Assembly: GCA_963710605.1 (NCBI GenBank)
Contig: CAVQBA010000007.1
Coordinates: 64,001-128,000, forward strand
Direction of reading: 5' to 3'
Origin: an uncultured cyanobacterium
GTDB taxonomy: Bacteria > Cyanobacteriota > Cyanobacteriia > Cyanobacteriales > Cyanobacteriaceae
Length of the DNA stretch: 64,000 nucleotides
Notes under the pieces: model-generated
What the model saw: the letters and a program-made list of their open reading frames with translations, nothing else
Told to the model about the DNA's origin: nothing
Databases searched by the model: none
In this document: one piece after another, positions 38,294 through 42,940 of the stretch
Numbering within the stretch: the stretch's first letter is position 1
Layout of the letters: each line of letters starts with the position of its first letter
Made by a program: the position numbers and the translations under genes

Positions 38294-39469
38294 TTAACTT
38301 TGATGCAACTGATTGTGAATGACGATCGAATTGTCATTACAATCTTTGCCTACTATATAAACATCAACTAATCCATCACTAAACAGATATACTTGAATAT
38401 CGGTCAAACTTGACCTAACTTTTTGTGAAAATGATTTAATCTCTTTTAACCAAGATGGAGTATATCCGTCTTCTAGATCGCTATTCTCGCCAAAAAAACC
38501 TGATTCTAATTCTGTAGCTACCATCGCATGAGTATTAATTAAAATATTATGAACTAATGCTTCTTTGGTTTCGGCTATTTCCCAAACAAAACAGTCTAAA
38601 TCTCCATCGTATATGTCTATAGCATTTAATTGTTCGTCGATCGTCTTTTTTAAAACTTTATTTTCTGACTTATGTGATGCTTTATCTAATATTCTTTTTC
38701 GAGTAGGATATGCCCCATATTTGTCGTAATGAGCTACTCTGGTAGAAACACCAATCCAATCTCCATAGATAGTATTACCAATCAAAAATAAAAGACCTTC
38801 CTCAAATAAATTTTCATCTATATTTAGTGAATAAAACTTATAATCTGCCAAATATAAATAAGATGTCAGCAAGTCAATAATTAATTCGTATTCTTGTATC
38901 GGATTCTCTGATGAATACAAAAAGATACTTTTAGTATCTACCTCAACAAATAAGCCTGTAGTTTCTAAAAATAGATCTAAACTAAATTGACCTCTTAATT
39001 TACTATCCCATAAAAATAGATCGTAGGGTTCTGAGCTTTCGGTATTATGATGGTTATGAAGTCCATAAAATAATTTTCTTAATGTTTGAACTAATTCTGC
39101 GTTTGGATTATTTAATTCATCAGCAAGTAAAATATGAGTAGAGGGAAAATCGATCGCTTGAGAAATATCAACCCCTGTTAAATCTGCACCAAATAATATT
39201 GTCTCATTAAAATTAGTACCATTTACGATCGCACCTTGTAAATTTGACCCTTCTAAATTAGCTAAGGATAAATTTGATCCGCTTAAGTCTATATTTTGTA
39301 AATTACTCTCACGTAAATATACTTCTTCCAAATTGCAATTAATTAATTTTGCTCCCTTCAAGTTAGTTTGTGATAGATTAATTGCTCTCAAATCTTGGTT
39401 TTCTAAATGAATATTGGCAAAATTACTCTCACCGTTTTCGATTTTGTTTTTCAGTTGTTCGGCATCCAT
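38294..39469 (-). CDS. Pentapeptide-repeat protein with probable NuiA-like (nuclease A inhibitor) C-terminal domains
   Basis: N-terminal A(N/D)Lxx repeats; ESSEPYDLFLW, IG...GDWIGVSTRV, LTDIQVY...VDVYIVGK resemble NuiA. Confidence 0.7.
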   Translation of the reverse strand: MDAEQLKNKIENGESNFANIHLENQDLRAINLSQTNLKGAKLINCNLEEVYLRESNLQNIDLSGSNLSLANLEGSNLQGAIVNGTNFNETILFGADLTGVDISQAIDFPSTHILLADELNNPNAELVQTLRKLFYGLHNHHNTESSEPYDLFLWDSKLRGQFSLDLFLETTGLFVEVDTKSIFLYSSENPIQEYELIIDLLTSYLYLADYKFYSLNIDENLFEEGLLFLIGNTIYGDWIGVSTRVAHYDKYGAYPTRKRILDKASHKSENKVLKKTIDEQLNAIDIYDGDLDCFVWEIAETKEALVHNILINTHAMVATELESGFFGENSDLEDGYTPSWLKEIKSFSQKVRSSLTDIQVYLFSDGLVDVYIVGKDCNDNSIVIHNQLHQS

Positions 39470-39557
39470 AAATCTTTAAGTTGCGATCGATCGCTTATGT
39501 TATCTTTGTGTCTATTTAGCTTATGATATATTACTTGAATAAAAAATCAAATCTTAC

Positions 39558-39586
39558 TTGACTTTTTCTTCAACATTAGTTATATT
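39558..39586 (+). promoter_or_regulatory. Sigma70-type promoter for the ncRNA-RT transcript
   Basis: TTGACT (39558-63), 17-nt spacer, TATATT (39581-86), 25 nt upstream of the first unit. Confidence 0.7.
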
Positions 39587-39610
39587 AGAGATAGCTTGAA
39601 AAAGCAATCG

Positions 39611-39863
39611 ATCGATAATCTTGCAATCCTATTTGGTGTATCGCCATTTGTGTATTAAGTAAAGATCAAGCATCACTAGCTAATTTTTCACCTAGTGCGA
39701 AGCCAGCAGGGTTAAACTGTTTGGCTTCTATCGAAGAACGAAAGTTTATTATTTACTAGTCAGTATTTAATATTTGTTCTTTAGACCCTAATATTAAGTA
39801 GGGGTGGGCTGTCTTCGCCGAGTTAAATTATCTAGTCAAATGTATTATTCGAAGATTATCGAT
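39611..39863 (+). ncRNA. Retron msr-msd-like unit 1
   Basis: Perfect 12-bp inverted repeat ATCGATAATCTT (39611-22)/AAGATTATCGAT (39852-63); G at 39623; GTGTATCGC hairpin; CAAGCATCACTAGC; branched msd. Confidence 0.75.
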
Positions 39864-39938
39864 TACCTGAAATGGTCTAGTTATAAGTTAATTTATTTAG
39901 ACTTGACTATTTTCAAAAACATACAATTGAGTCAATAG

Positions 39939-40174
39939 GCTGACTTTGTTGGATTAAAGAACCTTGCAATTAATGGATAGTGTATCGCTATTCTTGTCGT
40001 TAGTTTACTACAAGCATCACTAGCCTCCTCTTGACTGTACGGTCATGCAGTACTAGTTACTTTCCCGGTGTGAATTCGGTGAAATGTAATAAGTAACTAG
40101 TACTGCGACCGCTTGAGTTGAGTAGTCTAGTCCGCCGAAGGCTTACGAAGGAAAAAAATCCCAACAAGATCAGC
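39939..40174 (+). ncRNA. Retron msr-msd unit 2
   Basis: Inverted repeat GCTGACTTTGTTGGATT (39939-55)/AATCCCAACAAGATCAGC (40157-74) plus CCTT/AAGG; G at 39966; same msr motifs; msd with perfect 16-bp stem 40047-62/40091-106. Confidence 0.85.
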
Positions 40175-40247
40175 TTGTTTCTTTTTTGTTTATTTAATTA
40201 AAAAAATCGCTATTTTGTCAAAAAGTTAATCATCACATCATATACCA

Positions 40248-41642
40248 ATGTCTGAACAACCTCGTACTCGTCAGGAACTTTACAATCTAGTTCGTCAAAG
40301 AGGAAAAGATGTATTTATCTTAGAAGAAATGGTTCGCTTGGGTTTTTGGCCAGCCGAAGGAGAGCTTCCGAACGATCCTGCTGACGATATTCGACGTATG
40401 GGGGAGATTAGGCAAGAATTAAACCAGTTAAGACAAGAAAGTAGAAATCTTCAGGATGAAAAACTTCTCCGCAAAAGATTATTAAAAGAAAGATTAGCTG
40501 AATCTCGTCGCAAACAAGCGGAAAACAAGGAAAAAAGAGAACGAGAAAGAATTGCTAGGGCTGAGACTTGGCAAAAGAAGAAACAAACAGAGATTACTTA
40601 CTTAGGAGAAGATGTTTCTGGCGGTTTAAACTATACTGAGTGTAATCGAGAAAAATTAGAAGCACGATCGTTACCCATTTTAGGTAATGCCCTCGAAATA
40701 GCTACAGCTATGGGTATTACCGTTCCTCAGTTAAGATTTTTAGCTTTCAATCGTAAAACTTCGACTGTGTCTCATTATGTTCGTTTTAAAATTCCTAAAA
40801 AGACTGGTGGTGAAAGATTAATTTCTGCACCTATGCCCAGATTAAAAGAAGCTCAGTATTGGATATTAGAACATATTTTAAATAAAATACCCGTTCACGA
40901 TGCCGTTCATGGTTTCAGAAACGATCGTTCTATTGTCACTAATGCTCAACCTCATGTGGGTGCAAATATTGTGATTAATTTTGATTTAGAAAATTTTTTT
41001 CCTTCTGTTTCTTACAAACGAGTTAAAGGCTTATTTCGCTCTTTTGGTTATAGTGAGGCGGCGGCGACTATTTTTGGCTTAATTTGTACTGAAGCCGAAT
41101 TAGAAGAAGTGGAATTAGATGGAATGACTTACTATGTCGCTTTAGACGATCGACATTTACCACAAGGCTCACCTGCTTCACCCGCAATTACTAATATAAT
41201 GTGTCATCGTTTAGATGAATCTTTGACTAAGATGGCACAAAGAAAAGAATTTGTTTATACTCGTTATGCAGACGATCTCACTTTTTCTACTACTGCGGTT
41301 AATCCTCGTATCGGTCATATTCTCAAAGATACTGATTCGATAGTAAGATATGAAGGTTTTAAAATTAATCAGAAAAAAACTAGAGTATTACGCAAAAGTC
41401 GGCAACAAGAAGTTACAGGTATCGTGGTTAATGAAAAACTAAACATCGATCGTCAAACACTCAAAAAATTTCGGGCGACTCTTCATCAAATAGAAATGAA
41501 TGGTTTTGATAATGCCTCTTGGGGAAACAGCAAAGATATTATGGATTCAATTAAAGGTTTTGCTAATTTTGTAGCGATGGTTAACCCTGAAAAAGGAGCA
41601 AAATTTCTGACTCAAATTCAACGTATTGAGCAACAGTTATAG
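40248..41642 (+). CDS. Retron-type reverse transcriptase with long charged N-terminal extension
   Basis: IPKKTGGERLISAP, NAQPH (region X NAxxH), DLENFFPS, LPQGSPASP, YTRYADDLTFS, QEVTGIVVN (region Y VTG). Confidence 0.95.
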   Translation: MSEQPRTRQELYNLVRQRGKDVFILEEMVRLGFWPAEGELPNDPADDIRRMGEIRQELNQLRQESRNLQDEKLLRKRLLKERLAESRRKQAENKEKRERERIARAETWQKKKQTEITYLGEDVSGGLNYTECNREKLEARSLPILGNALEIATAMGITVPQLRFLAFNRKTSTVSHYVRFKIPKKTGGERLISAPMPRLKEAQYWILEHILNKIPVHDAVHGFRNDRSIVTNAQPHVGANIVINFDLENFFPSVSYKRVKGLFRSFGYSEAAATIFGLICTEAELEEVELDGMTYYVALDDRHLPQGSPASPAITNIMCHRLDESLTKMAQRKEFVYTRYADDLTFSTTAVNPRIGHILKDTDSIVRYEGFKINQKKTRVLRKSRQQEVTGIVVNEKLNIDRQTLKKFRATLHQIEMNGFDNASWGNSKDIMDSIKGFANFVAMVNPEKGAKFLTQIQRIEQQL

Positions 41643-41761
41643 TTTAGTTATGTCAATTTATACCTAAAGCGAGACCAAGGTAACGGATTTTGACAACATT
41701 TTGGTGAGATAAAAATTTATATTTACCATAATTAATAATTGAATTTGTAGCTAATCTTTAA

Positions 41762-41868
41762 TATAGCAAGTAACAAGTAGGGAGCGGACATATCAACCAC
41801 CCCTAACCCCTCCTTCAAAGGAGGGGGAACTTCATTCAACTATTCAAAACAACTTGTTTACTGCTATA
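41762..41868. repeat. TATAGC...GCTATA cassette containing a REP-like hairpin
   Basis: CCCCTAACCCCTCCTT-CA-AAGGAGGGG inside inverted ends TATAGCA/TGCTATA. Confidence 0.65.
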
Positions 41869-42040
41869 GCTAATAACTTAAGATATCGGTGTAAAAACAA
41901 TTTTTTTCAAAGAAAATATTTTCTTTTTGTACCCTTGTAGTAACAGTGTTTATAGCTTATTTGATAATAAAGTCACATTAAAGTCACAGAATTGAGAAAT
42001 AAATTCATTAAAATCTAAAGCAACCAACTTTCGAGCTTTT

Positions 42041-42940
42041 GTGAAAATGAAACCTAATTCCTCTAAAGAAAAATTCTCTCCAGAAAATACACCCAATTAT
42101 CATCACGAGGAAAACCAACCCGAACCATACAACTATATACCAGAAGAATATATACCAGAAGAAAAGATACACACAAAGGCAGAAAAAGATCTACTCAACT
42201 ATTCTCCACAAGAGTTTGATGCACTACGTAAAATAATTAAAGAAAGTAACTTACTACACTTATCTTTTCACTTTCTTGATTATATTTTACGATTGCAAAA
42301 ATCAGTTTTTGAACAGATTTATACTCAACAGAAATTACCTAAAATCATTATTTCAATGTCAATATTGTGTGTGTTTTTATCAGGTATTTACGGTTTAACA
42401 ATGGGAATGAATCATAGTTTTTTATTAGCTATCTCTTCAGCCATAAAATTACCAATGTTGTTTTTACTAACTGCGGTTATTTGTATTCCATCGCTTTATA
42501 CTTTTAACGTCATGTTGGGGCAAAAATTTAAGTTTTTACAAACCGTAGCTTTAATGATTATGACATTAGGCACAACTACAATTTTATTAGCTAGTTTAGC
42601 CCCACTCTCTTTTTTCTTTGTGCTAACTACCAGAAACTATTTCTTTTTACAATTAATGCACGTATCGATATTAGGTTTATGTGGAATTTATGGTGTATAT
42701 TATCTTTATCGTGGATGCTCTTATGTTGCTTTTAGAATGGAGCAACCTTTAAATAAATTACTGTTGAAAATTTGGATTGTTATTTATGCAGTAGTGGGCA
42801 TGCAATTAGGTTGGAGATTAAGACCATTTATTGGTACTCCAGGTAGCCCGTTTGAAATTTTTAGAGTCCAAGAAGATGGTAATTTTTACCTTGCTGTTTG
42901 GGAATCTATAATGAGACTTTTAGAGGGAAATGCAGGATAA
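42041..42940 (+). CDS. Conserved multi-TM membrane protein
   Basis: Five hydrophobic helices; SSAIKLPMLFLLT, GMQLGWRLRPFIG. Confidence 0.8.
   Translation: MKMKPNSSKEKFSPENTPNYHHEENQPEPYNYIPEEYIPEEKIHTKAEKDLLNYSPQEFDALRKIIKESNLLHLSFHFLDYILRLQKSVFEQIYTQQKLPKIIISMSILCVFLSGIYGLTMGMNHSFLLAISSAIKLPMLFLLTAVICIPSLYTFNVMLGQKFKFLQTVALMIMTLGTTTILLASLAPLSFFFVLTTRNYFFLQLMHVSILGLCGIYGVYYLYRGCSYVAFRMEQPLNKLLLKIWIVIYAVVGMQLGWRLRPFIGTPGSPFEIFRVQEDGNFYLAVWESIMRLLEGNAG

Follow-up and report, generated by a model that had tools for sequence, protein, structure and literature searches.

Within the window, that is, the whole 64,000-nt stretch of cyanobacterial DNA analysed here, we found a retron reverse transcriptase (RT) gene with two accessory genes upstream on the same strand (Table 1). 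Directly upstream of the RT gene lies a gap of 778 bases, bounded by the RT ORF and by a minus-strand gene ending at 39469. The RT was assigned to type XIII, since its match to RT_XIII was far stronger than that to the next PADLOC model, RT_other (1.8e-191 vs 1.3e-95), and the 3.93-Mb assembly holds one RT_XIII match in total. In the product of the winged-helix gene, Pfam SWIM was located at residues 506–539 with a score at the cut-off. An orthologue of this gene, of equal length, stands immediately upstream of the RNA units in two related metagenome loci, L107 and L108.

Type XIII retrons correspond to clade 10 of Mestre et al. 2020 (PMC7736814), which includes Retron-Mxa1/Mx162, Mxa2/Mx65, Sau1/Sa163 and Nex2/Ne144. 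Their accessory genes are described there as encoding a winged helix with a C-terminal SWIM zinc finger (cluster 114) and a WGR-like/HEAT-ARM protein (cluster 216), the latter upstream of the SWIM gene. The window has a clade 10 RT (by the RT_XIII profile) with an N-terminal extension, a linked SWIM gene, a WGR/HEAT-ARM gene upstream and contiguous msr-msd ncRNA with a1/a2 inverted repeats, the last found in both units with a model built from homologous loci. By these features, the locus is an intact type XIII retron consisting of the WGR-HEAT/ARM gene, the winged-helix/SWIM gene and the RT.

The product of the minus-strand gene between the SWIM gene and the RNA array contains pentapeptide repeats, and its C-terminus is NuiA-like (nuclease A inhibitor). 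The gene looks like an insertion into the retron because the SWIM gene directly precedes the array in L107 and L108. A small PD-(D/E)XK_3 gene is situated between the WGR-HEAT and SWIM genes and occupies the same place in L108 (805–1194); PADLOC gave no match for its product. An Rfam scan of 38500–42500 returned no family at threshold, and a match to IRE_I at 39558–39607 (E 0.4, below threshold) was taken as chance.

Table 1 Features of the retron locus in window coordinates
Feature	Position	Strand	Basis or remark
WGR + HEAT/ARM accessory gene, 1048 aa	32577–35723	+	PADLOC WGR_XIII E 0 (1188 bits), HEAT-ARM_XIII 6.9e-45; Pfam WGR, HEAT_2
PD-(D/E)XK_3 gene, 130 aa	35829–36221		Pfam 1.1e-42
Winged-helix/SWIM accessory gene, 546 aa	36635–38275	+	PADLOC SWIM_XIII 2.6e-242
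Pentapeptide-repeat/NuiA-like gene, 391 aa	38294–39469	−	
Promoter-like site before unit 1	39558–39586	+	TTGACT-17-TATATT, 10/12 matches
ncRNA unit 1 (msr-msd 1)	about 39601–39868	+	covariance model R1 match, fold, orthologues
Unit 1 a1 arm	39611–39622	+	
Unit 1 inferred priming G	39623	+	
Unit 1 hairpin 1	39631–39649	+	
Unit 1 conserved msr 3′ block	39667–39680	+	
Unit 1 junction stem	39675–39686 with 39825–39836	+	
Unit 1 basal msd stem	39697–39702 with 39813–39818	+	
Unit 1 apical msd	39703–39812	+	variable, three-hairpin
Unit 1 a2 arm	39852–39863	+	
Promoter-like site before unit 2	39898–39927	+	TAGACT-18-TACAAT, 9/12 matches
ncRNA unit 2 (msr-msd 2, canonical)	39927–40183	+	R1 210 bits, fold, inverted repeats I2 and I4
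Unit 2 outer a1	39934–39952	+	
Unit 2 inner a1	39962–39965	+	
Unit 2 inferred priming G	39966	+	
Unit 2 hairpin 1	39975–39993	+	
Unit 2 conserved block	40011–40024	+	
Unit 2 junction stem	40019–40030 with 40120–40131	+	
Unit 2 msd hairpin	40047–40062 and 40091–40106	+	perfect 16-bp arms
Unit 2 inner a2	40148–40151	+	
Unit 2 outer a2	40161–40179	+	followed by T-run
Retron RT, type XIII, 464 aa	40248–41642	+	PADLOC RT_XIII 1.8e-191 (residues 1–463); Pfam RVT_1

Anatomy of the two template RNA units

The gap upstream of the RT gene contains two complete msr-msd template-RNA units. Direct repeats of 11, 45 and 12 nt recur at a constant spacing of 343–345 nt, the 45-nt one covering the msr with 76% identity and the 12-nt one the −35-like ACTTGACT. 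The long-range inverted repeats form two separate pairs, one per unit: 39611–39627 pairs with 39847–39863 in unit 1 (17 nt, 88%, with 12 bp perfect between 39611–39622 and 39852–39863), and 39934–39952 pairs with 40161–40179 in unit 2 (19 nt, 79%). An earlier reading of this DNA (hereafter the sequence-only reading) had described outer arms that differ between the units while each stays self-complementary, and the measured arms agree with this description. Both stretches are predicted to fold into closed, retron-like RNAs, and none of 200 shuffles folded as well as unit 1 (z −3.8) or unit 2 (z −5.5).

The msr scaffold is common to both units and is composed of CUUGCAAU with an invariant G, hairpin 1 and GCAUCACUAGC, while the a1/a2 closing arms, the basal stems and the msd are private to each unit. 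The msd of unit 2 is one long hairpin, and that of unit 1 is a longer three-hairpin module. The outer a2 of the canonical unit is regularly followed by 6–9 T (window 40180–40196, and the 3′ ends in L002, L003, L004, L010 and others), and the closed arms may therefore terminate transcription after the ncRNA, ahead of the RT gene.

For a covariance model, R1, unit 2 was combined with the single units found in four homologous cyanobacterial loci, and unit 1 was left out. R1 matched unit 1 with 43.8 bits (E 4e-9; 40.5 bits locally) and unit 2 with 210 bits, and the search found no further units in this genome. In the R1 alignment of unit 1, the inner arm helix, hairpin 1, the CACUAGC junction stem and the basal msd stem are present, and a 100-nt insertion replaces the 51-nt apical part of the msd. 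Where other cyanobacterial loci have a single unit, it is the orthologue of unit 2. When 55 columns conserved at 85% or more were defined from 47 other units, 45 of them were kept in unit 1 and 53 in unit 2. Because the outer arms of the two window units are wrongly placed in the R1 alignment, the “broken” calls that it gives for helices 1–2 were set aside and the arms were measured directly.

The sequence-only reading had taken compensatory changes as a sign of structural selection on both units, and the comparison of the two units revealed more of them than it had listed. Among 47 core model pairs, 25 are identical between the units, 11 have changed on both sides while remaining paired in either unit, and none differs on one side only. 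The pairs that fail are found solely in unit 1 in nine cases (five of them without an aligned residue) and solely in unit 2 in two cases, giving 38/47 and 45/47 formed pairs, respectively. The junction stem reads UAAUUU/AAAUUA in unit 1 and CUCCUC/GAGUAG in unit 2, and the basal stem CGAAG/CUUCG and CGGUC/GACCG, both blocks being anchored without gaps by invariant flanks.

The letters quoted earlier for hairpin 1 are exact (TGGTG-TAT-CGCCA at 39634–39646 and TAGTG-TAT-CGCTA at 39978–39990), and the pair reported as a G-C to A-T swap is indeed G-C at 39635/39645 and A-T at 39979/39989. However, the swap is not fixed between the units: unit 2 of both relatives has G-C, so both bases changed in the unit 2 lineage that leads to the window. 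Hairpin 1 of unit 2 carries five substitutions with all 8 pairs still kept. The next stem, TTG…CAA, was also located as reported, with differing loops (39648–39650/39667–39669 in unit 1; 39994–39996/40011–40013 in unit 2), but it showed no covariation in 58 family members, and its third pair forms in 18 of these 58. Neither this stem nor the model's competing GCAA/UUGC helix, both without real covariation, is claimed here.

Orthologues and selection on both units

A metagenome scan with the RT identified L107 (RT 82% identical) and L108 (79%), which are closer than any genome. Each has two units before the RT gene, with R1 scores of 62 and 74 bits for the upstream units and 177 and 172 bits for the canonical ones. 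Plain MAFFT alignments showed that the upstream units (L107 3411–3642; L108 3162–3451) are orthologues of unit 1 and the downstream units orthologues of unit 2. Unit 1 and its orthologues have in common an identical a1 with CUUGCAAUC, the junction and basal stems and the −35 site.

Among the three loci, identity at four-fold degenerate sites of the RT gene is 42–49% (n = 146–153), and neutral sequence is therefore near saturation. Identity among the three was 0.80–0.91 for a1 and msr of unit 1 and 0.83–0.97 for those of unit 2, 0.83–0.90 and 0.82–0.91 for the 5′ junction and basal msd, and 0.94–0.97 and 0.96–1.00 for the 3′ basal msd and junction. The apical msd was 0.30–0.56 identical in unit 1 and 0.67–0.77 in unit 2, and the spacers of both units pooled were 0.24–0.53 identical. 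On the window branch, unit 1 was no faster (0.80–0.84) than unit 2 (0.83). The msd module of unit 1 kept its length in spite of the sequence turnover (122, 119 and 123 nt; fold z −2.8 to −3.8 each), and that of unit 2 is 75 nt in all three (z −4.7 to −7.0).

When the six sequences were placed on the model structure, 87.7% of the cells were paired, compared with 34–48% after sliding, and 27 pairs with double changes were counted against 8–12. At the pairs 36/332, 100/306, 103/303, 105/301, 121/290 and 122/289, the three sequences of one paralogue differ on both sides from the three of the other (a 3:3 split), and six to seven pairs in total represent fixed compensated differences between paralogues. 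Across 49 units of the family, 91.1% of the cells were paired vs about 40% when partners were slid, with double changes in 57 of 70 pairs; such counts come from model-fitted alignments and lean towards structure, a concern limited by the slide controls and the gap-free anchoring, and covariation within unit 1 alone is thin, with three orthologues.

Since the functional segments of unit 1 are as strongly conserved as those of unit 2 and lie far above the neutral proxies, with fixed compensated pairs between the paralogues, the duplication is old and maintained, and the homologue alignment thereby bears out the earlier view of an old, maintained duplication and not a decaying copy. Both units have retron anatomy and orthologues on both sides of the duplication, and they evolve under purifying selection with compensatory change; by these comparisons, both are kept by selection. 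It is very improbable that the resemblance of the units and their “compensatory” changes arose by chance or from AT-rich repeats, without RNA structure playing a part. The single pair cited in the sequence-only reading would indeed be weak evidence alone, and the TTG…CAA stem is without covariation support, but such an origin would leave unexplained the R1 match to unit 1 at E 4e-9, the outcome of the shuffle and slide controls and the very existence of orthologues.

Among sequencing runs containing this DNA, no RNA run was listed, and three metagenome runs of one study contained small shares of it. Several metagenome contigs from runs X1 and X2 are identical to the first ~30 bases of unit 1 (window 39600–39630) and then diverge into msr/msd variants, one of which matches L107. 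Since the contigs branch after these common ~30 bases, several unit 1-type variants coexist in the samples of that study. Another organism's unit 2-like RNA with an RT start was also found among the same study's contigs. A BLAST search with unit 1 against 401 genomes of the order gave no orthologue except a relic in the same-genus genome G001, and four other weak matches had no covariance-model match.

This relic shows what decay looks like in a related retron. In G001 (a sister species; 67% complete), at L102 1203–1594 on the minus strand, one unit 2-type RNA has its msd deleted to 20 nt and is followed by a 65-aa RT stump, in which the N-terminus is joined to a mid-RT segment; its genomic context is different, with a histidine kinase upstream and an rpsD-like gene downstream. 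Unit 1 has none of these decay features. We consider it unlikely that, after long maintenance of the unit 1 lineage, the copy in the window lost its activity recently and has begun to decay, even though hairpin 1 gives some reason to think so. Its lower part has two U·U mismatches (39632/39648 and 39633/39647), the sole unpaired cells in a helix that is 99.5% paired across 49 units and has 7 pairs in L107 and 8 in L108, so that this copy alone breaks two pairs of what is otherwise the most invariant helix of the family. The window is also the longest unit 1 branch in the tree, although its divergence equals that of unit 2 on the same branch, and the foreign minus-strand gene appears to have been inserted just upstream of the array, yet the promoter-like site of unit 1 is intact. 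Furthermore, the window's unit 1 has no deletions, its junction and basal stems are identical to those of the orthologues, and its arms are the best of the three (−18.7 vs −13.2 and −12.5 kcal/mol).

Arms, promoter-like sites and predicted products

The cognate arm duplexes amount to −18.7 kcal/mol in unit 1 and −24.3 kcal/mol in unit 2, compared with −6.5 and −9.1 kcal/mol for the crossed ones, and the cognate duplex was the most stable in 10 of 10 arrays (21/21 units). This fits the earlier suggestion that distinct arms stop the two units from cross-pairing. The part of that suggestion which placed both units in one transcript is in doubt, as each unit seems to have its own promoter. The number of promoter-like sites in the region is no more than chance; the −35 ACTTGAC and the −10 region of the unit 1 site are conserved in the L107 and L108 orthologues, and the −10 of the unit 2 site, TA(C/A)AAT, is aligned in both, each with a TTGAC −35 at 16 nt.

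Immediately 3′ of the inner arm helix, 49 of 49 units have a G, which we take as the putative priming G. In Mx162 and Sa163, the priming context is described as CAGC, with an 8-base overlap of msr and msd (review PMC6868368). Neither window unit has the CAGC context or a G at the equivalent position, and UAGC occurs at the putative priming position in one family member. If synthesis is primed at the invariant G and ends at the junction stem, the predicted msDNAs would be ~179 nt from unit 1 (template 39673–39851) and ~131 nt from unit 2 (template 40017–40147), and these fold as DNA with z −4.0 and −6.2, respectively.

Taken together, we propose a type XIII retron whose template-RNA gene was duplicated into a two-unit array, each unit being copied by the single RT into its own msDNA, and we give this reading a probability of roughly two in three. 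Each unit would be transcribed from its own promoter, fold on itself through its private arms and self-prime at the G beside the inner arm helix. The RT should recognise the msr scaffold common to both units and would copy each into its own msDNA, roughly 180 nt for unit 1 and 130 nt for unit 2. The comparisons establish the anatomy, orthology, purifying selection and compensatory evolution of both units, whereas their transcription, the priming position, the msDNA sizes and the actual copying of both are predictions. It is probable that a single enzyme yields two different small DNAs.

Alternatively, unit 1 could be a conserved structured RNA which binds the RT or an accessory protein without being copied. 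Having come from a duplicated msr-msd, it would then serve as a decoy, a regulator or a scaffold. Its family-model score far below that of unit 2 (44 vs 210 bits), the weakened hairpin 1 in the window and the short closing arms in the relatives (8–11 pairs) would suit such a role. Nevertheless, unit 1 has kept everything that priming requires: its arms end at the invariant G, the template starts with CGAAG, and the junction stem is present. The fast turnover of its apical msd (0.30–0.56 identity) would suit an uncopied RNA as well, but fast msd turnover is typical of ordinary retrons in the type XIII family too, and the length and foldability of the module are retained, as they would be in a template with a product that matters. 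An uncopied unit 1 is thus quite unlikely, and copying of both units remains the preferred reading.

Arrays in type XIII loci and comparison with known systems

R1 matches were obtained in 48 of 94 sources at E ≤1.3e-6, and five of these had two or three units. Among the seven closest metagenome loci, six matched, five of them with two units. Overall, 54 type XIII loci gave a match and 10 of them have tandem units, a minimum, since diverged units receive low scores. Of 151 genomes from the phylum, searched with stricter filters, 16 have a unit and only this one has two. The window contains a natural array, with two complete tandem units on the RT strand, a single RT_XIII gene and all units maintained. 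The largest array sampled is that of a Bacteroidota MAG (L054 2037–2893), with three tandem type XIII units of 94–105 bits each, private arms and one RT.

In a FastTree phylogeny of 58 units (249 columns), the unit 1 trio was recovered with a support of 0.999 and the unit 2 trio with 0.945, the two trios being sisters at 0.805. The units of L029, L032, L041 and L054 grouped by locus with supports of 0.98–1.0. This suggests several independent duplications, while concerted evolution with the shared RT could mimic the grouping by locus.

Several cyanobacterial type XIII loci carry unrelated ORFs between the ncRNA and the RT gene, which place the template RNA 0.8–2.3 kb from the RT. These inserted ORFs encode 221, 302 or 225–237 aa (L002 776–1441; L010 554–1462; L027 2054–2962; L028 2021–2929; L058 2289–2966; L026 2250–2963). 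Diverged second units in such gaps of other cyanobacterial loci were ruled out, the gaps holding protein-coding ORFs. In the complete genome G023, the sole model match (C1:3822701–3822954) lies ~3.4 Mb from the type XIII RT (C1:441585–442982, locus L012) and may be a trans-encoded template RNA; trans placement may also explain 12 cyanobacterial RT loci without a unit in their flanks.

A retron is usually described as one RT, one ncRNA and one effector, and M. xanthus makes its two msDNAs with two retrons, each of which has an RT of its own. A natural array kept by selection would show a retron RT serving several templates in its native setting. It would also show how cross-folding is avoided, with a1/a2 arms and stems that are private to each unit while the msr scaffold is shared, and engineered multiplex retron editors could take this over directly as a design rule. 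Type XIII includes the oldest known retrons (Mx162), and the array would offer a handle on the function of this type, the three orthologous arrays being natural variants for finding which parts the RT reads. If msDNA is a sensor, two msDNAs imply two specificities. More broadly, type XIII retrons might natively run “multitrons”, in which one RT makes two or three msDNAs, arrays have arisen repeatedly, private arms keep the units orthogonal, and the msDNAs act as separate sensors or ligands for the WGR-HEAT and SWIM proteins and so widen detection; we offer this wider view tentatively, with belief falling a little short of even.

In a full-text literature search, we found engineered arrays and a preprint on phage UG27 RTs, and no description of natural retron msr-msd arrays. 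In the UG27 systems, experiments are reported to show that each unit of an ncRNA array is copied into a short hairpin cDNA (10.64898/2026.09.22.753630). These resemble the window in being natural, variable arrays of structured template RNAs adjoining one RT. As described, however, they have a class 2 Unknown Group RT, three different proteins, units of 135–167 nt with other motifs and a phage setting. The window does not belong among the UG27 arrays, which have a UG27-class RT with two accessory ORFs, given its RT_XIII enzyme, its WGR-HEAT and SWIM accessories and its canonical retron msr-msd units, and UG27 is an analogue only.

Engineered “multitron” arrays are described as tandem msr-msd units with one retron RT, each unit giving its own DNA (10.1101/2023.07.17.549397). 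The window has the same arrangement of tandem units with one retron RT, its copying being predicted from sequence. The multitrons, as reported, are man-made from Eco1 with repeated identical scaffolds, whereas the array here is natural and old, and its units have diverged to private arms and stems.

With other type XIII retrons, the locus shares the RT family with its N-terminal extension, the WH-SWIM and WGR-HEAT/ARM genes, and an msr-msd upstream of the RT that is closed by a1/a2 and forms a long hairpin in its msd. One ncRNA per retron is the assumption made by Mestre et al. 2020 (PMC7736814), and the main text of that paper makes no mention of ncRNA duplication or tandem copies. Unlike those retrons, the one described here has two different msr-msd units for a single RT, an arrangement conserved in three lineages.
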